A DNA stretch of 63,697 nt, filler included, from 3 parts of 3 records of this genome joined end to end with filler, not necessarily neighbours in it, one strand, 5' to 3'. Shown: positions 1,756 through 10,000, numbered from the whole stretch's first letter. Notes: generated by a model from the letters alone, not told the origin. Numbers and translations: made by a program.

Positions 1756-1915
1756 AGTCTTTTCTTTTTAAAGTTTGTTAACGCTTGTAATTCCTAAGCG
1801 GTTGTAAATTTAAGGAAACTAAACCGGCTATTGTATTAAGAATATCCAAAGCCTTTAACCGACAAAAAGACAGCTAATTCCGCACTACAACTGACTAAAC
1901 GTCGGTTTTAACAAA

Positions 1916-1930
1916 TGGTACAGCAATTGC
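1916..1930 (+). promoter_or_regulatory. Putative sigma54 -24/-12 promoter of clpB
   Basis: TGGTACAGCAATTGC has GG-N10-GC spacing and matches TGGCAC-N5-TTGC with one mismatch; lies 26 nt before the clpB ATG. Confidence 0.6.
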
Positions 1931-1956
1931 CATATCAATATCGAAATACAAACACG

Positions 1957-4560
1957 ATGAACTTTAATAATTTCACCATAAAATCACAAGAAGCCATACA
2001 GCAAGCCCAGGCGCTTGCTCAAGGGTATGGCCATCAGCAAATCGAGAATGAGCATATTTTTAAAGCCATTCTAGAAGTTGATGAGAACGTTACTCCGTTT
2101 CTGCTCCAGAAACTGGATGTGAAAGTAAATCTGTTAAAGCAGATTTTAGAGAGCACGCTTACCAGTTTTCCTAAAGTAAGCGGTGGCGATATTATGCTGT
2201 CTCGTGAAGCCGGTAAAACGGTAACCGAAGCTAGCAACATCGCCAATAAAATGAACGATGAGTATGTTTCGTTAGAGCATTTGATCCTGGCGATCTTTAA
2301 ATCGAGCAGCAAGATCGCACAGATCTTAAAAGATCAGGGCGTTACTGAAAAGCACCTCAAAGCCGCGATTGAAGAATTGCGCAAAGGCGATCGCGTAACT
2401 TCGCAAAGCGCTGAAGAAACCTATAATTCGTTAAGCAAATATGCCAAAAACCTTAATCAACTCGCCCGCGACGGGAAGTTGGACCCGGTGATTGGTCGTG
2501 ATGAAGAAATACGCAGAATTCTGCAAATTCTTTCTCGTAGAACTAAGAACAACCCGATTTTAGTCGGTGAACCCGGTACCGGTAAAACCGCGATCGCCGA
2601 AGGGCTCGCCCACCGAATCATCGACGGCGACGTGCCAGAAAACCTTCAAGAGAAACAGATCTGGGCGCTCGATATGGGAGCCTTGATCGCAGGCGCAAAA
2701 TATAAAGGGGAGTTTGAAGAGCGACTTAAAGCCGTGATCAAAGAAGTAACTACCAGTGCCGGTGATATCGTTCTGTTTATAGACGAGATCCATACCCTTG
2801 TAGGTGCCGGTGGTGGTCAGGGCGCGATGGATGCCGCAAATATTTTAAAGCCTGCTTTGGCTCGTGGCGAATTACGTGCTATTGGTGCCACCACGCTTGA
2901 TGAGTATCAAAAATACTTTGAGCAGGATAAAGCTTTAGAGCGCCGCTTTCAGAAAGTGAGTGTTTTTGAGCCGGATACCGAGTCTGCGATTTCCATCTTA
3001 CGTGGGATCAAAGAAAAGTATGAGACGCATCATAAAGTGCGTATCAAAGACAACGCGATCATTGCAGCGGTAGAGCTTTCGCAACGCTATATCACCAACC
3101 GCTTTTTACCCGATAAGGCGATCGACCTGATGGATGAGGCAGCTTCAAAAATGCGTATGGAGATCAACTCCAAGCCCGAAGAGCTTGATGTACTCGACCG
3201 TAAGATTATGCAACTCGAGATCGAGATCGAGGCCATCAAACGCGAGCAGGATGAGAACAAACTCAAGTCCTTACGCGCTGATCTTGCCAATCTTAAAGAA
3301 GAGCGCAACGAGATCAACGCCAAGTGGAAGAGCGAGAAAGATGTGGTAGATAACATCCAGAACGCCAAGCAGGATATTGAAAACTTTAAGCTGGAAGCCG
3401 AACGTGCCGAGCGCGAAGGCAATTATGGTCTGGTAGCCGAGTTACGCTACGGCAAGATCAAGCAAGCTCAGGAAGAGCTCGAGAAATTGCAGGAGCAACT
3501 GGCCGCACAAGCTGATAACAGCCTTATAAAAGAGGAAGTTACCAGTGAAGACATCGCCGAAGTGGTAGCTAAATGGACGGGAATCCCCGTGACCAAAATG
3601 CTGCAAAGCGAGCGCGAGAAATTGTTACACCTCGAGGGCGAACTGCACAAACGTGTGGTAGGCCAGGAAGAAGCGATCATCGCCGTGAGTGATGCGGTGC
3701 GCAGAAGCCGCGCCGGCCTGCAGGATCAAAAACGACCTATAGGTTCGTTTTTATTCCTCGGGACCACGGGTGTGGGTAAAACCGAACTCGCAAAAGCGCT
3801 GGCAGAATACCTGTTTGACGATGAGAACAACATCACCCGTATAGATATGAGTGAATACCAGGAGCGTCACAGCGTGAGCCGTCTGGTAGGCGCACCTCCG
3901 GGATATGTGGGTTATGATGAAGGCGGGCAGTTGACCGAAGCCGTACGTCGCAAGCCCTACAGTGTGATCTTGCTCGACGAGATCGAGAAAGCGCACCCAG
4001 ACACCTTTAATATCTTGTTACAGGTGCTTGACGAAGGTAGACTTACAGACAACAAAGGCCGCCTGGCAGACTTTAAGAACACCATCATCATTATGACCTC
4101 AAATATGGGAAGTCATATCATACAGGAAAAATTTGAAACCATCAAAGATCCTGAGACCGCGATGGAAGGTGCAAAAACCGAAGTGCTGGGGATGTTGAAA
4201 CAAACTATACGCCCTGAGTTTATAAACCGTATCGACGATATCGTGATGTTTACCCCGCTTACGCGAAAAGACATCGAGCAGGTCGTGAGTTTACAACTCA
4301 AAGGCGTGACCCGTATGCTGGCAAAACAAGGCATCACGCTAGATGCTACGGCCGAAGCAATCAAGTTTTTGGCAGACCGCGGTTTTCAACCGGAGTTTGG
4401 TGCACGTCCTGTAAAACGTACCATACAGAAAGAAGTGTTGAACAAACTGTCTAAAGAGATCTTAGGCGGCAAGGTCACCACAGACAGTATCATTTTACTC
4501 GATGCGTTTGATGACGAACTCGTGTTTCGCAATCAGAGCGATCTGGTAGAGAACGACTGA
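1957..4560 (+). CDS. clpB: ATP-dependent chaperone ClpB
   Basis: Clp-N repeats, two AAA+ modules ([16 protein letters not shown]), coiled-coil middle domain and GAPPGYVGY. Start placed at the ATG at 1957 (MNFNNFT). Confidence 0.97.
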
Positions 4561-4581
4561 AGAGCATTGCTCGTATAAACC

Positions 4582-4613
4582 AAAAGCGACATCGTATTGA
4601 TGTCGCTTTTTTT
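4582..4613 (+). terminator. Intrinsic terminator of clpB
   Basis: AAAAGCGACATC-GTATT-GATGTCGCTTTT followed by more T residues. Confidence 0.85.
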
Positions 4614-4789
4614 ATTTTTTATGCAGAAGCGAAAATGAGCACAATTAGTTAATAAATTATTAATAACAATATTGATTTTATGGTAGTTGTGGGTTTTTAA
4701 TTGGATAGTTTTATAAATGTCATAGTATAAACAATAGCGTTTAAAATAAATTGACACATTATAGACTTTCATTTCTAAATCTAATTATT

Positions 4790-5326
4790 ATGGCAAAATT
4801 AAAACGAAATTTCTTTGTGAGTTATCATCACGAAAATGATCAAAAATACGTAAAGGCTTTGCGGAAGTTTAAGAAGGGTATGGAAGTCGCTGATTATTCT
4901 TTAAAGAAAGATATATCAGAATATAAAGATGATGAGATATATAAGATTATAAGGAACAAGATGCGAGCCTGTTCTGTAACTATTGTACTTATTGGAGAAC
5001 GAACAGGACATAGAAAATGGATCGATTGGGAGTTATGGGCATCATTAAGAGCATATAAAAATACCAGAAACTTTAAAAGGTCATTTAGACCCAAAGGGCT
5101 GCTAGCAATTTATTTACCAACAGCAAGTCACTCTGTACCTGAGAGGCTACAAGCCAACATAGATTCTGGGTATGCAGTATCAATGAGATGGAAAAATATT
5201 GAACGTGATTTTGAAAGCAAAATTAATTATGCAATATGGAAAAGAGACCACGCTAGTCACGAGATAAAAAATAATTTAGAACGCTTCGATAGAAATGCGA
5301 TAAATTTTCTTGGGTTTAAAATATAG
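4790..5326 (+). CDS. ThsB-like TIR-domain protein (MTH538/DUF1863 type)
   Basis: RNFFVSYHHEND ... CSVTIVLIGERTGHRKWIDWEL, with the catalytic-type Glu. ATG at 4790 preferred over TTG at 4751. Confidence 0.85.
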   Translation: MAKLKRNFFVSYHHENDQKYVKALRKFKKGMEVADYSLKKDISEYKDDEIYKIIRNKMRACSVTIVLIGERTGHRKWIDWELWASLRAYKNTRNFKRSFRPKGLLAIYLPTASHSVPERLQANIDSGYAVSMRWKNIERDFESKINYAIWKRDHASHEIKNNLERFDRNAINFLGFKI

Positions 5327-5328
5327 AT

Positions 5329-5877
5329 ATGGCAGGAATTAATAGAGCTCATTCATTAAATGAGAGTAAGGCAAGAATTAATTTATCACTAGGTAAAGAA
5401 TGTGTTTTTATAAGTCATCATAAAAGTGATTTAGATGACTGTATAAAGATAGCAGAGTATCTAATGAGGGCTAACATAGATGTTTATTTAGATGAATATG
5501 ATTATGATTTAAAGGAACAGGTACAGAGACAAAACCCTAAGGGTGTTGTTAAATGTATAAGCAAGGGAATAAATAATAGTACTCATATGTTATGTGTATT
5601 ATCAAGCCAAACTATTTATAGTAAATGGGTGCCTTGGGAATTAGGCTATGGTTATGATAAAACAGATTTAGGAGCAATAACTTTAAAAGGTATAGCTGAA
5701 GCATCTCTTCCGGATTACCTAAAGACAGTTAGACTCGTTAGAGGGACTCAATCTCTAAATCAATATATATCGGATGTTTTAGGATACAGCAAGGACTATC
5801 TTAAAATGTATAACAGAATTGATGAGCATTCAAAGCCATCGCATTTTTTGGATAACGTGTTAGATTGGAAACTTTAA
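5329..5877 (+). CDS. TIR-domain protein (TIR_2-like)
   Basis: CVFISHHKSD ... DVYLDEYD ... STHMLCVLSSQTIYSKWVPWELGYG, with the catalytic-type Glu. Confidence 0.85.
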   Translation: MAGINRAHSLNESKARINLSLGKECVFISHHKSDLDDCIKIAEYLMRANIDVYLDEYDYDLKEQVQRQNPKGVVKCISKGINNSTHMLCVLSSQTIYSKWVPWELGYGYDKTDLGAITLKGIAEASLPDYLKTVRLVRGTQSLNQYISDVLGYSKDYLKMYNRIDEHSKPSHFLDNVLDWKL

Positions 5878-5890
5878 ATTAATAAAAATT

Positions 5891-6676
5891 ATGAGTAAAG
5901 AATATTTAATATCAAAATTGTCTTTCAGAAATGATGAGCAATTAATAGACTCTGTAAAGATTGGATTGGTTTCTGGAAATTCTGTTGGGTCATTTGAAAC
6001 AAAGGATAGAAACTGGTTAGTTGATCAGTATAATAGTGGTCATACAATTGGAGGTATATACAAAAAACTTGATGGCACATGGTACAGAAAAGATAGTTTT
6101 AGAGTTGAGGACGGTTACTTTAAATGGGGCTATCTATTCCCTAAAAATATTTCGAAAAGGAATGTTTTTATAAGTTATTACCACAACGACGATCAATTGA
6201 AAAGAAAGCAATTCGATAATCTTTTTGGTGATTTGATTATAAATCAATCAGTAATGTTAGATGAAATTAATGGTGAGAATAGTGACGATTATATTCATAG
6301 GTTAATCAATGAGGGTTATATGAAAGACACTACGGTTCTTACAGTTTTATTGGGACCCAATACTAAGTGTAGAAAACACGTAGACTGGGAAATTGGCGGG
6401 GCTCTTAATGTGAAAGTTGGTGACAGATATGCGGGACTTTTAGGCATAAGGCTTCCATCTCACCCAGATTATGGTTTAGGCACAGATTTCAATCCAGATT
6501 ATTATCCAATAAGATTCGCAGCCAATTTAGAAAGTGGATACGCTGTTCTCGCTGATTGGTCTGAAGATAGAAAAGCTATGCAAGATTTGATCGAACTAGC
6601 ATTTTCAAGACGAAAAGAAATTGATAAAATTAAAAATGCTAGTATTCAAAGACTAGCAGAAAACTCTTGCGAATGA
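5891..6676 (+). CDS. Extra N-terminal domain (DUF3892-like?) fused to a ThsB-like TIR
   Basis: About 85-aa beta-rich N-terminus, then RNVFISYYHNDD ... TTVLTVLLGPNTKCRKHVDWEI; paralogous to 4790-5326. Confidence 0.8.
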   Translation: MSKEYLISKLSFRNDEQLIDSVKIGLVSGNSVGSFETKDRNWLVDQYNSGHTIGGIYKKLDGTWYRKDSFRVEDGYFKWGYLFPKNISKRNVFISYYHNDDQLKRKQFDNLFGDLIINQSVMLDEINGENSDDYIHRLINEGYMKDTTVLTVLLGPNTKCRKHVDWEIGGALNVKVGDRYAGLLGIRLPSHPDYGLGTDFNPDYYPIRFAANLESGYAVLADWSEDRKAMQDLIELAFSRRKEIDKIKNASIQRLAENSCE

Positions 6677-7851
6677 AAAATTTTAAAAGCCCATTATCGA
6701 TATATGTCTTATGGCATCCCGAGTTCAAAGAAGGTACAAGTTATGCTGAAAGTATTTACAATACTTTTAGTGGTGTAAACGGTAATGTAACTCATGCGAA
6801 ATATGATATACCTGTACATTACAGAACACTACCTTTTAAAAATGAAATATTTGCCAAAATACCATTTTCTGAGTCTAAAAGGAATGCTTTAGTTATTTTG
6901 ATAGATGAATATATGTTTAATGATTTTAATTGGACTCAGGCTATAGATGACCTTTTAAAATCAAAGCCATCAAATGCTCGTATTTATCCTGTTTCTTTTA
7001 GCAATTATGCCTTTGATTTAAACCCTGAACATTTAACACCAACTCAATTTATAAGGACTAATCAAAAAGATCCCATTACCGGTAATGAAATAGAAGTTAA
7101 TGATAGAATTATCAAATATAGATTGTTAGAAAGTATTGCTAAGCTTTTATTTAATGTAAAGGATAATTATGATTCTCAAAAAGATAGCGACCCTCCAATA
7201 AGGCTTTTTATCTCCCACGCTAAACAGGATGGAGAAGTTTTAGCTATGAATTTTAGAGATTATATATACAGTAAAACAAAACTGAAGGCATTTTTTGATG
7301 CCAACGATATAGCAGATGGTCATCAGTTTGAGCGGGAAATCAAAAAACATATAGATCATTCAGCATTTGTATTATTTAATACGGATGAATATGCAAATAG
7401 AGAATGGTGTAGAAAAGAAATTATTATTGCTAAGAGGTATAGATGTCCCATCATTGGCGTTATGGATATAAAAAAAGGAGAACAACGAAGTTTTCCCTAT
7501 AGTGGTAATTTCCCTACAATAATCTGGAACGATAATTTTGAGGAAATTATTAATTTGATTTTATCCCAAATCATAAGTGATAAATACAATGAACTTTATT
7601 TAAAATCTATAGTTCAAATGTACGAACTAGAGAACCGTTATTGTTGTTTAGTACTTCCAAAGGCTCCTGAATTATTCAATTATATTGATATAGAAAATTT
7701 TAAAAACGAGGAGAAGGATATGAATTCCCTTATAGTATTATATCCGGATCCTCCTATAGGAATTGAAGAAGTTAGTTTACTAAATGACGTAGACAGGGAA
7801 ATCAAATTTATAACCCCTTTATTATTGCCAACATACATTTCAGAACTATGA
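6673..7851 (+). CDS. Multidomain TIR protein: degenerate TIR-like N-terminal domain, intact TIR, and C-terminal YPDPP domain
   Basis: N-terminal LSIYVLWHP; central RLFISHAKQDG ... FFDANDIADG ... YANREWCRKEI; C-terminal LIVLYPDPPIGIEE. ATGA overlap with the upstream gene. Confidence 0.8.
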   Translation: MKNFKSPLSIYVLWHPEFKEGTSYAESIYNTFSGVNGNVTHAKYDIPVHYRTLPFKNEIFAKIPFSESKRNALVILIDEYMFNDFNWTQAIDDLLKSKPSNARIYPVSFSNYAFDLNPEHLTPTQFIRTNQKDPITGNEIEVNDRIIKYRLLESIAKLLFNVKDNYDSQKDSDPPIRLFISHAKQDGEVLAMNFRDYIYSKTKLKAFFDANDIADGHQFEREIKKHIDHSAFVLFNTDEYANREWCRKEIIIAKRYRCPIIGVMDIKKGEQRSFPYSGNFPTIIWNDNFEEIINLILSQIISDKYNELYLKSIVQMYELENRYCCLVLPKAPELFNYIDIENFKNEEKDMNSLIVLYPDPPIGIEEVSLLNDVDREIKFITPLLLPTYISEL

Positions 7852-8807
7852 AAAAGGAAAATATAGTAACTAATAAAGATTTAGATAAGTTCGTAGCTGA
7901 AGAAATAAAAGAGAACTCTAATCAAAAAGAAATTAATCTATTAAAAGGTCGAAATATTGCCGTCTCCATTAGTGAAAGTCCTGATATAGAAAATTTAGGT
8001 TTTTCATTAGAACATCAAAAAAATCTAATAACAGAAATAACTAGATTTTTGATAATTCACGGGAGTACCTTGGTTTATGGAGGTGATTTACGGCAAAACG
8101 GATTTACAAGGTTATTTTCAACTCTTGTTCATCAATACAGGCCTAGTAAAGAAATTAATAAGAAGTTTTTTAAAAATTATTTTAGTTTTCCAATTCATTT
8201 AAAACTTTCAAGAACTGATGTCTTAGAATTTAAAAAGAATGGTGTTTTGCCAGTTTTAGTTGACCCACCTGAAGACTTAGAAATAGATGAAGATAAATTT
8301 TACGACCCTGTAGGAAATGACAATCTCTTTATTTGGTCAAAAAGCCTTTCTAAGATGAGACACGAGATGCAAAGTAACACAGACGCTCGAATTTTTACTG
8401 GTGGAAGTATTTCCAATTTTAAAGGTAAATATCCCGGTTTATTAGAGGAGTCTTTACTTGCTCTAGAAAGCAATATACCAGTCTATTTTACGGGAATATT
8501 TGGGGGTATAACAATGAAAATAATTGAAGGTCTAGAAGGGAAAAAACCTCAGGAATTAACACTTGAATGGCAATCATCTCAAAATAAAAAATATGAAGAA
8601 TTTGTAAGTTATTATAATTCAAAACAGAGTACAGATCAGATTGATTATGAGCAATGCACTCAATTCTTAAACGCATTTACCTTAGAGCGTTTGAGTCAAA
8701 ATAATGGATTGACAATTGATGAAAATGTAAGACTTTTTAATTCTATACATACGTCGGAAATAATCTTTTTAATTATGAAAGGTCTTCAAAATAAACTATC
8801 AGAATAA
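7848..8807 (+). CDS. Stand-alone SLOG-superfamily protein (SLOG cluster2-like; ThcA-like)
   Basis: IAVSISESPD, LVYGGDLR, SLSKMRHEM, DARIFTGG ... PGLLEE ... PVYFTGIFGG. ATGA overlap with the TIR gene. Confidence 0.8.
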   Translation: MKKENIVTNKDLDKFVAEEIKENSNQKEINLLKGRNIAVSISESPDIENLGFSLEHQKNLITEITRFLIIHGSTLVYGGDLRQNGFTRLFSTLVHQYRPSKEINKKFFKNYFSFPIHLKLSRTDVLEFKKNGVLPVLVDPPEDLEIDEDKFYDPVGNDNLFIWSKSLSKMRHEMQSNTDARIFTGGSISNFKGKYPGLLEESLLALESNIPVYFTGIFGGITMKIIEGLEGKKPQELTLEWQSSQNKKYEEFVSYYNSKQSTDQIDYEQCTQFLNAFTLERLSQNNGLTIDENVRLFNSIHTSEIIFLIMKGLQNKLSE

Positions 8808-9005
8808 TATGATCAAATAGAATATTTATAGTGCTGTTTATCCCAATGCATATAGTGCTGTATCACCCGGTAAAATCAAGTCTTAATTTTCATTACACCT
8901 ACCCCAAAAAACCCACCACCTTCAGGGTCATTTCCTGTAAAAAATAAGAGCGATTTCCTTTTTAAAAAGGGTCAACCGCTCTGATAATGTGACGTATAGC
9001 CTGGC

Positions 9006-9042: not shown

Positions 9043-9297
9043 ATGCCACATTATGCACAAGGAACTTCAGGATGGACTAAATTAAACGGCTATCAGGCGC
9101 TTTGGGATCCTAAGATCGATCTGGGTAAATTCTATTTTACCACCTTTCAAGGGAAACGCGAAGAAACGCCGTATATGACCGCAGAAAATTTTGCCCGCGT
9201 CATCGACATTCTTAGAAATGAAACGCCGGTTTATGGTAACGCCAGCACCGGCTCGGTCACCACTCAAGCCGAAGAAGTGGGGGAAGAAGAAAGTTAG
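9043..9297 (+). CDS. Small hypothetical protein (84 aa)
   Basis: ATG with an A-rich upstream region, its own promoter element and terminator; C-terminal IDILRNETPVY...EEVGEEES. Confidence 0.7.
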   Translation: MPHYAQGTSGWTKLNGYQALWDPKIDLGKFYFTTFQGKREETPYMTAENFARVIDILRNETPVYGNASTGSVTTQAEEVGEEES

Positions 9298-9451: not shown

Positions 9452-9473
9452 TTTGGTGTATATTTACATCAAA
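9452..9473. promoter_or_regulatory. Putative toxin-antitoxin autoregulatory operator
   Basis: TTTGGTGTA-TATT-TACATCAAA, a 9-bp inverted repeat with one mismatch directly before the antitoxin ATG. Confidence 0.55.
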
Positions 9474-9482
9474 CATAATCTT

Positions 9483-9719
9483 ATGGCACGTCAAAGTATT
9501 TCCTTTACAAAACCCAATGATGATTGGTTAAAAGAACAGGTAGACTCTCAAGAATATACCAGTAAAAGTGAACTGATCAATGATCTTGTTAGACAAGCCC
9601 GCAAACAGCAAGCTGAGATAGACTGGATACGCACTAAACTCGACGACGCCGAACAAAACGGCTTTACAAGCGAAAGCAAACAAGAAATTTTAGCTCAGGC
9701 CAAGTCTTCTTTAAAATGA
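9483..9719 (+). CDS. ParD-like ribbon-helix-helix antitoxin
   Basis: MARQSISFT ... EYTSKSELINDLVRQAR; overlaps the toxin start (ATGA). Confidence 0.85.
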   Translation: MARQSISFTKPNDDWLKEQVDSQEYTSKSELINDLVRQARKQQAEIDWIRTKLDDAEQNGFTSESKQEILAQAKSSLK

Positions 9720-10000
9720 ATTACCGGCTTAGCAATACCGCTAAAGAAGATTTAATTCGCATTTACAAATACGGCGTTTACAAATTTGGTAGTGCTCAGG
9801 CTGAGCAGTATTTTGGGAACTTCTTTCTCTATTTTGATCGCATTGCAGAAAATCCATATGCTTTTGAAGCAGTTGATTTTATTAAAAAAGGATACAGACG
9901 TCGCGTTTGCGAAGTAGATAGTATTTATTACAGAATCAATAAAAATACGGTGGAGATTATGACCATCATTGGCAGGCAGGATACTCAAACTAAAATCTAA
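9716..10000 (+). CDS. ParE/RelE-family toxin
   Basis: YRLSNTAKEDLIRIYKYG..KFG..QAEQY ... GYRR ... IYYRI ... VEIMTII. Confidence 0.88.
   Translation: MNYRLSNTAKEDLIRIYKYGVYKFGSAQAEQYFGNFFLYFDRIAENPYAFEAVDFIKKGYRRRVCEVDSIYYRINKNTVEIMTIIGRQDTQTKI

Follow-up and report, generated by a model that had tools for sequence, protein, structure and literature searches.

The window analyzed here is a stretch of 63,697 nucleotides, filler included, joined from three parts of three records of the genome of a marine flavobacterium. Downstream of clpB it carries a tightly packed, anti-phage-type island of five genes on the plus strand, which we designate g1 to g5 (Table 1). The first three code for small TIR domain proteins, the fourth for a larger TIR protein with additional domains on both flanks, and the fifth for a member of the SLOG cluster2 family. 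We focus primarily on the pair formed by g4 and g5, on its predicted role as a split sensor-effector, and on the relationship of the whole locus to the Thoeris systems.

The stop codon of g4 and the start codon of g5 share a 4-nt overlap (ATGA at 7848-7851; sequence ctATGAaaaag), as the initial annotation of this locus had noted along with the coordinates of the pair and the 392-aa length of g4, all of which are borne out by the open reading frame (ORF) calls. To place this linkage in an evolutionary setting, relatives of g4 were sought in one genome per species and turned up in 344 of the 185,579 genomes scanned; the 80 top-ranking loci, of which almost all come from Bacteroidota, were then inspected. 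Of these 80 loci, 77 yielded a g4 ORF call, and in 71 of the 77 the next gene downstream is g5, with a spacing of at most 8 nt in every adjacent pair (71/71) and an exact 4-nt overlap in 25. The six g4 loci without an adjacent g5 comprise four that are cut by a contig end right after g4 and two (L012 and L076) that are devoid of g5. In L072 and L078, one ORF (648 and 650 aa, respectively) spans both g4 and g5. Setting aside the four contig-end loci and the unresolved L074, g5 follows or is fused to g4 in 73 of 75 loci.

Natural fusions of the two, which the initial annotation had proposed to look for, turn out to be common, with the order N-domain-TIR-C-domain-SLOG. A search with g5 for longer proteins recovered 92 of 600-708 aa, of which 89 carry both PF13676 and PF18163. 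They range from versions close to the window proteins (e.g., P0121, 708 aa, with 65% identity to g4 residues 1-389 and 65% to g5) to distant ones (e.g., P0182, 645 aa, with 30% identity to g4 and 37% to g5). An exhaustive profile search recovered 2,717 SLOG cluster2 representatives at E <= 0.001 (2,010 at E <= 1e-10); among the best 150 of the 2,717, fusion size (600-775 aa) accounts for 69 and stand-alone size for 63, and the TIR domain is N-terminal to the SLOG domain in 10/10 of the fusion-size proteins scanned.

Modeling of the pair, also proposed in the initial annotation, supports the binding of g4 to g5. The complex prediction, made without this analysis's own alignments, reached an ipSAE interface score of 0.87 in each of three runs, against 0.54 for the best control; 51 of 78 solved complexes attain this mark, as do 2 of 108 mismatched pairs. 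The runs share at least 89% of their contacts, with a predicted local distance difference test score (pLDDT) of at least 83 for the partners. The predicted interface is made on the g4 side by two separate regions, one in the N-domain (residues 1-6, 26-33 and 45-67, the last with the invariant P47 and R51) and the other in the C-domain (residues 309-317 and 364-390), and on the g5 side by residues 24-31, 48-71 (with the conserved L50 and G51) and 291-314. In this arrangement, the catalytic TIR domain of g4 is left free. Because of the near-invariant adjacency, the natural fusions and a complex prediction that passes its controls, we conclude that g4 and g5 are a real functional unit, in effect the two predicted halves of one protein, in keeping with the split unit suggested at the outset.

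Table 1. Coordinates of the island genes, their domains and the surrounding features. Positions are those of the window, except where another locus is named.
Feature	Position	Strand	Description
clpB	1915-4560		Upstream flank of the island
Terminator-like hairpin	4582-4610	+	3' of clpB; terminator scan
Low-GC island	4622-8898		4.3 kb; composition profile and G001 comparison/junction sequences
g1	4790-5326	+	178 aa, ThsB-type TIR; W77..E81 (WxxxE); Pfam ThsB_TIR 8.1e-19
g2	5329-5877	+	182 aa, TIR; W100..E104 (WxxxE); Pfam TIR_2 1.7e-10, ThsB_TIR 2.4e-8
g3	5891-6676	+	261 aa; ThsB-type TIR at residues 93-191; catalytic-type Glu E167; Pfam ThsB_TIR 1.6e-15
g3 N-terminal extension	5891-6160	+	Residues 1-90, before the ThsB-type TIR
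g4	6673-7851	+	392 aa; stop overlaps g5 ATG
g4 N-domain	6673-7152	+	Residues 1-160; alpha/beta flavodoxin-like fold; AlphaFold2 models
g4 TIR domain	7186-7572	+	Residues 172-300; Pfam TIR_2, alignment, VIA and profile matches
g4 C-domain and stop codon	7573-7851	+	Residues 301-392; small alpha/beta unit; AlphaFold2 secondary structure
g5	7848-8807	+	ATG, 319 aa; Pfam PF18163 (LD_cluster2/SLOG cluster2)
84-aa ORF	9043-9297	+	No family match
ParD-like antitoxin and ParE toxin	9453-10000	+	88 aa and 94 aa; genes overlapping
G001 inserts	L083 = G001:C8:486264-489743; ORFs 344-1261 and 2467-3027		RES-like and IS200-like, respectively
SLOG-patatin protein	L098 (NZ_CP156945.1), 3208-4824		538 aa; Enterobacter hormaechei IncHI2A plasmid
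SIR2-TIR/nSTAND1 neighborhood	L013, 1901-6995		Parafilimonas metagenome-assembled genome

The ORF call for g4 extends to a TTG at 6667 (6667..7851, 394 aa); the 392-aa form begins at the ATG at 6673, which is also the start of its close homologs, mostly of 392 aa and beginning with MK.FKSPL. Pfam recognizes a TIR_2 domain at residues 179-261 (E 6.5e-11) and no family in residues 1-170 or 270-392. An alignment of 39 homologs (93-37% identity to g4) and an AlphaFold2 model (mean pLDDT 83.8, predicted template modeling score 0.86) point to a three-part protein. The central TIR domain displays the invariant motifs LF.SH..D, FFD..D and R243-E-W245-C246..E249; the stretch around the catalytic-type Glu reads W245-C-R-K-E249, with W245 and E249 present in 39/39 aligned homologs, consonant with the intact TIR described initially. 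Structure comparison with VIA retrieves MyD88 (Z 12.8), Cat1 (12.4), BcThsB (11.9) and SARM1 (11.8; 22% identity), with receiver domains and GTPases within about 1-2 Z, and a profile search of the PDB sequences returns TIR proteins exclusively (AtTIR, BtpA, PdTIR, AbTIR, Roq1 and Cat1). In PADLOC this TIR obtains weak matches to the SAVED_TIR model (8e-5) and to the short-pAgo TIR models. By profile and fold, the domain thus compares with the enzymatic TIRs.

The N-domain contains the segments LSIYVLWHP (residues 8-16), ALVILIDE (72-79) and IYPVSF (105-110) that had been singled out from the sequence in the initial annotation, which had also described it as an alpha/beta domain lacking a catalytic WxxxE. 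Both points agree with the predicted fold and with the equivalent position, which reads W87..I91 and has no Glu. Conserved residues in this part are P7, W14, P47, R51 and R103, of which P47 and R51 are invariant. Folded alone, the N-domain reaches a pLDDT of 79.5, and in VIA the TIRs rank first among its matches (Cat1, Z 10.6, root-mean-square deviation 2.7 over 120 aligned residues; RPS4/RRS1, 10.1; AtTIR, 10.0), which also include TIR-STING; von Willebrand A (vWA), REC and flavodoxin folds follow within 1 Z. The best Foldseek match is the TIR domain of MAL/TIRAP (3.8e-4). Comparison of the N-domain with g4's own TIR domain and C-domain by hhalign detected no similarity (probabilities of at most 0.6%), and the idea of a duplicated TIR draws on how the folds rank and on a brief DEY...W similarity noticed on visual inspection. 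On these grounds, the N-domain is probably a degenerate TIR. Some SLOG clades are said to be associated with proteins combining one active and one inactive TIR, and the data on g4 are consistent with such a make-up: of this suggestion in the initial annotation, the active-type TIR with its Glu stands, and the assignment of the N-domain as its inactive partner fits the fold ranking without being conclusive, as unrelated flavodoxin-like folds lie within 1 Z.

The C-domain, which includes the previously noted YPDPPIG motif (residues 357-363), has P332, E333, Y357, P360, G363 and E366 as invariant residues and docks on the SLOG protein in the predicted complex. A Foldseek search of the PDB with whole g4 was set aside as uninformative for the individual domains, having returned low-TM tandem Rossmann-like matches only (SIS domains, EngA and exostosins).

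The identity of g5 as a SLOG protein, proposed from the start, is firmly established by its match to PF18163, which covers nearly the entire profile (residues 32-296, profile positions 2-264 of 264; 259.1 bits with a cut-off of 25.3; E 6.5e-77). Its invariant residues (S40, S42, G51, H56, E63, Y77, G79, G85, R171, G186, G193, G197, E200, E201, G216, G219 and G220) include a Y-G-G-D motif and P196-G197-x-x-E200-E201. Catalytic LOG enzymes are characterized by GGGxG and PGGxGTxxE-type motifs, which those of g5 resemble without being identical. ThsA, the type I Thoeris effector, contacts 3'cADPR through a Ser that follows strand 1, through Arg and Lys, and through a G...E pair four residues apart, according to passages of 10.1101/2022.05.07.491051; the invariant S40/S42, R171 and G197..E201 of g5 echo these contacts as a motif resemblance, not as an alignment. 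Some relatives of g5 obtain weak matches to STALD, the ThsA-type SLOG domain, and NCBIfam has no match for g5 at E <= 0.01. Within the collection of papers searched, none relevant to SLOG cluster2 (PF18163), PF18180 or ThcB4 was found. Separately, about 12 SLOG cluster2 proteins of approximately 370-445 aa display an unassigned N-terminal extension of 60-150 aa.

PADLOC calls all three small TIR proteins encoded by g1-g3 ThsB, and the catalytic-type Glu is kept throughout their homologs (25/25 for g1, 51/51 for g2 and 58/58 for g3). NCBIfam returned no match for g1 and g3 (E <= 0.01), and Pfam no SIR2 or STALD domain in any of g1-g5 (E <= 0.1). The last of the three is joined to g4 by another 4-nt ATGA overlap (6673-6676; sequence gaATGAaaaat). 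The N-terminal extension of g3, which has no Pfam match, is kept in g3-type homologs of about 255-269 aa, and some relatives have g3-type proteins of about 180 aa that lack it.

The best reading of these proteins, which is that of the initial annotation and to which we give an even chance, is that a signal made by TIRs is perceived by the SLOG protein, which then turns on the TIR domain of g4 as an NAD+-cleaving enzyme (NADase). One or more of the ThsB-type TIRs g1-g3 would sense infection and produce an ADP-ribose-derived signal from NAD+, which would bind the SLOG pocket of g5; the clamp formed by the N-domain and C-domain of g4 would then mediate an assembly or rearrangement of the g4:g5 complex, such that the TIR domains of g4 form an active NADase that depletes NAD+ and stops phage growth. 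The invariant core of the operon would accordingly be g4, with a degenerate TIR, an active TIR and a docking domain, bound to g5, and the complex would be a functional analog of ThsA, TIR-SAVED and TIR-STING with a TIR in the killing role. We favor this because TIR is the sole effector-type domain that the operon encodes, because the TIR-then-SLOG order copies that of ThsA, TIR-SAVED and TIR-STING, and because a constant core is accompanied by differing numbers of small TIRs. The role in defense, the identity of the signal, the course that signaling takes and the NADase activity are what we infer.

A role for SLOG cluster2 as the ligand sensor is further favored by the weak STALD matches of its relatives and by a protein from an operon of type III Thoeris, a system to which we return below: the 538-aa protein of the E. 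hormaechei plasmid (Table 1) bears a partial SLOG cluster2 region (2.1e-8) before a patatin phospholipase, whose match reaches the cut-off of the CBASS_lipase equivalog. It looks like a second, SLOG-gated effector within that operon.

Several observations weigh against this sensor-effector scheme. All four TIR domains, those of g1-g3 and that of g4, keep the catalytic Glu, and maker and killer are not assignable from sequence. The invariant GGD and PG..EE motifs of g5 are of a type common to ligand-binding and catalytic SLOG/LOG proteins and are therefore compatible with an enzymatic SLOG. None of the PADLOC models, that of ThsA included, matches g5, Pfam finds no STALD domain in it, and its profile retrieves no relative among the PDB sequences, the sole match being by chance (E 0.33). 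The operons of the relatives add further points. Counted over 79 related loci, 40 have the core accompanied by TIR genes only, typically as g1-g2-g3-g4-g5 like the window, and such operons are often inserted into a type I restriction-modification (R-M) operon, with hsdS on one side and hsdR/ygjP on the other (e.g., L001, L002, L025, L032, L058 and L072, among others). In the other 39, genes for MazG+MazG_C (PF18722), HMUDK_hel (PF18723) and Nmad2 (PF18753) are interleaved with g4-g5, typically in the order (TIR)-MazG-(TIR)-g4-g5-HMUDK_hel-TIR-Nmad2 (L028, L034, L036, L039, L044, L051, L096 and about 30 more), and two loci (L063 and L066) add a thymidylate-synthase-like (ThyA-like) gene. These associations hint at modified-nucleotide chemistry beyond NAD+ cleavage. 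The small TIRs range from none to four, and all three types occur together in 34/79 loci, a co-conservation suggestive of fixed subunits or pathway steps rather than of interchangeable sensors. Finally, TIR-SLOG cluster2 units also terminate giant fusion proteins, namely patatin-TIR-SLOG (1,074 aa), nSTAND1-TIR-SLOG (1,246 aa) and ParA-like-TIR-nSTAND1-...-SLOG (1,569 aa; P0274, P0335 and P0348), and their presence inside patatin and nSTAND1 proteins is not obviously explained by a simple sensor-killer pair.

As a separate observation on these neighborhoods, the Parafilimonas locus L013 features a SIR2_2-TIR fusion (471 aa) and an nSTAND1 NTPase (1,224 aa) followed by g4-g5, with a patatin gene downstream, and constitutes a dense defense neighborhood.

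Part of this evidence can be accommodated if g4:g5 is instead a two-enzyme signal or metabolite module, in which the TIR cleaves NAD+ or another nucleotide and a LOG-type SLOG converts the product into the final signal or into a nucleotide that is toxic or depleted, with further steps or execution falling to the small TIRs. Catalytic SLOG/LOG proteins retain residues of the kind seen in the invariant GGD, PG..EE and R171 of g5; the juxtaposition of TIR and SLOG cluster2 persists even where the protein is already equipped with a patatin effector or a STAND NTPase; MazG/MazG_C, HMUDK_hel and Nmad2 are added in the 39 loci described above; and one small TIR associated with the relatives has a weak Nuc_deoxyrib_tr match (2.4e-5, below the cut-off). 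In passages of PMC9503650, Aravind and co-workers also predict that some SLOG domains use NAD+ for ADPr-derived signals or cleave ribosyl N-glycosidic bonds. We nevertheless deem such a module unlikely, in that the order of an NADase-type domain followed by SLOG matches the known sensor-effector proteins, a SLOG cluster2-like region is fused to patatin without a TIR in the type III operon, where a sensor fits better, and the window operon itself contains no MazG, HMUDK or Nmad2 genes.

A bolder version, which we consider quite doubtful, takes the entire five-protein core for a multi-enzyme nucleotide pathway, in which the SLOG, as a LOG-like N-glycosidase, would sit on the TIR supplying its substrate, and nucleotides other than NAD+ would be the product or target. 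Here, the recurrent MazG/MazG_C, HMUDK_hel and Nmad2, sometimes with the thymidylate-synthase-like gene, suggest modified (deoxy)nucleotides as in phages with hypermodified DNA; our literature search found nothing relevant on Nmad2 or HMUDK. If true, this would be a TIR-based defense that makes or destroys a modified nucleotide, and should the sensor-effector scheme be wrong, the same association would point to TIR/SLOG chemistry on non-NAD+ nucleotides, the more surprising outcome.

The flow of the signal could also be reversed, with g4:g5 as an infection-sensing or regulated signal generator, its SLOG as an allosteric brake reading a cellular nucleotide, and g1-g3 as NAD+-depleting effectors or amplifiers. 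The retention of the catalytic Glu across all homologs of g1-g3, the co-conservation of the three small-TIR types in 34 of the 79 loci, and g4:g5 as the sole invariant part, as expected of a central controller, would suit such a scheme. It is made highly unlikely by the membership of g1 and g3 in the ThsB_TIR family, whose characterized members are signal makers, and by the occurrence of none to four small TIRs around a constant g4-g5, the pattern of variable sensors with a fixed effector.

The genomic setting bears on whether the locus serves defense at all. The island has a GC content of about 30-33%, against 43-51% in its flanks, and those flanks are 95-96% identical to the nearest genome used for comparison, G001, which lacks window positions 4621-8898. 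Identity to G001 stops at position 4620, placing the left edge of the island at about 4621, just past the hairpin behind clpB. At the same site, G001 has a different segment of 1.3 kb with a 305-aa ORF that obtains a weak RES-domain match (8.7e-5, just under the cut-off) and, further along, a second insert with an IS200-like transposase ORF. Because G001 is without the island and has another insert at the same spot, we interpret the island as recent, exchangeable cargo at a hotspot behind clpB. No direct repeats of at least 8 nt were found at its flanks, which show two 10-nt inverted matches only, and a sigma-70 promoter scan, which does not cover Bacteroidota promoters, stayed at background (29 sites versus 25.4 +/- 5.5 expected). 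Just downstream of the island lie overlapping genes for a ParD-like antitoxin (PF03693, 0.0019, below the cut-off) and a ParE toxin (PF05016, 7.8e-11), which by their families are a type II toxin-antitoxin pair. The region around the 84-aa ORF is 94% identical in G001 and therefore belongs to the core genome, not to the island.

The mobility of the island, the frequent placement of its relatives inside R-M operons and the adjacent ParDE pair form a defense context, and the locus is very likely a Thoeris-like TIR-SLOG defense island. A housekeeping or secondary cluster of nucleotide or cytokinin-like base metabolism built from TIR- and SLOG-fold enzymes, for which one might invoke the cytokinin bases made by LOG-family SLOG proteins (stated in passages of PMC9503650) and the nucleotide-modification genes in half of the related loci, is exceedingly improbable given a low-GC island that is replaced by a RES-like gene in a near-identical genome, relatives embedded in type I R-M operons and near STAND, SIR2-TIR and patatin genes, a patchy distribution across the species genomes scanned, and an anti-phage function for the nearest named system.

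What emerges is a family parallel to type III Thoeris, mainly in Bacteroidota, in which the frequent fusion of the large TIR to SLOG and the confident predicted interface provide a concrete, testable split sensor-effector model. Were the model true, a TIR would act as killer downstream of TIR-made signals, amounting to a TIR-for-SIR2 swap among the Thoeris effectors.

In its architecture, g4-g5 resembles the SIR2-SLOG/STALD effector ThsA of type I Thoeris, with an NAD+-cleaving-type domain N-terminal to SLOG, split here and fused in many relatives, and with ThsB-type TIR genes alongside. It differs in that no ThsA effector is found among g1-g5, the NADase candidate being a TIR flanked by two extra domains. 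A comparable layout is seen in TIR-SAVED and TIR-STING of the CBASS systems, which place an N-terminal TIR before a C-terminal nucleotide-sensor domain in one unit and undergo ligand-driven filament formation; there, however, the sensor fold is SAVED or STING rather than SLOG, and the upstream signal makers are CD-NTases rather than TIRs. Burroughs, Zhang, Schaffer, Iyer and Aravind reportedly predicted TIR-SLOG systems computationally in 2015 (in NAR), a work said to be the source of the Pfam SLOG cluster families and to consist of predictions only; as in the window, SLOG cluster2 is associated there with TIR proteins. The TIR-SLOG concept is thus already present in the Thoeris and Aravind-group literature and is less novel than the initial annotation assumed.

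The closest known counterpart is type III Thoeris (ThcB1-4 and ThcA; van den Berg et al. 2024, Cell Host Microbe 32:1427), which passages of papers citing that work describe as named and validated for defense, as comprising multiple TIR-domain proteins and a SLOG-domain effector with an uncharacterized signaling mode, and as countered by the phage inhibitor TadIII-1, whose mechanism they give as unknown. As references, we used the NCBIfam equivalogs for ThcB4 and ThcA (NF058526 and NF058525) and loci on plasmids of Sinorhizobium meliloti (L097) and E. hormaechei (L098). These feature several small TIR genes, a ThcB4 whose TIR is central (380-389 aa; 408-456 bits) and, directly behind it, a ThcA of 187-189 aa with the Pfam SLOG cluster3 domain (PF18180), which overlaps ThcB4 by 4 nt in S. 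meliloti and lies 2 nt downstream in E. hormaechei. The window shares this succession of small TIRs, a central-TIR protein of about 380-390 aa and an abutting or overlapping SLOG gene; in both, the large TIR protein (ThcB4 or g4) keeps the catalytic Glu, and both kinds of locus occur on mobile DNA or within operons of type I R-M systems, a genuine ThcB4 in the genome G016 following hsdM-hsdS. The constituent families differ: the SLOG protein of the window is of cluster2 and 319 aa, whereas ThcA is of cluster3 and about 185 aa; g4 scores 47.3 bits against the ThcB4 model, whose cut-off is 220, and in the TIR part only (residues 177-264), to which hhalign likewise confines the relation (96.6% probability, E 6.7e-10), with no detectable relation of the N- and C-domains; and g5 has no match to ThcA at E <= 0.01, with hhalign giving 42.7% probability in the C-terminal motif region. 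Because g4 and g5 fail the type III equivalog models, we classify the window system by its sequences as a sister variant of type III Thoeris, of the same design built from different families, and not as a member. The split sensor-effector arrangement, if true of g4-g5, would probably explain ThcB4-ThcA too, and on present comparisons the window locus, with its split TIR-SLOG core, is the equivalent of type III Thoeris built around SLOG cluster2.

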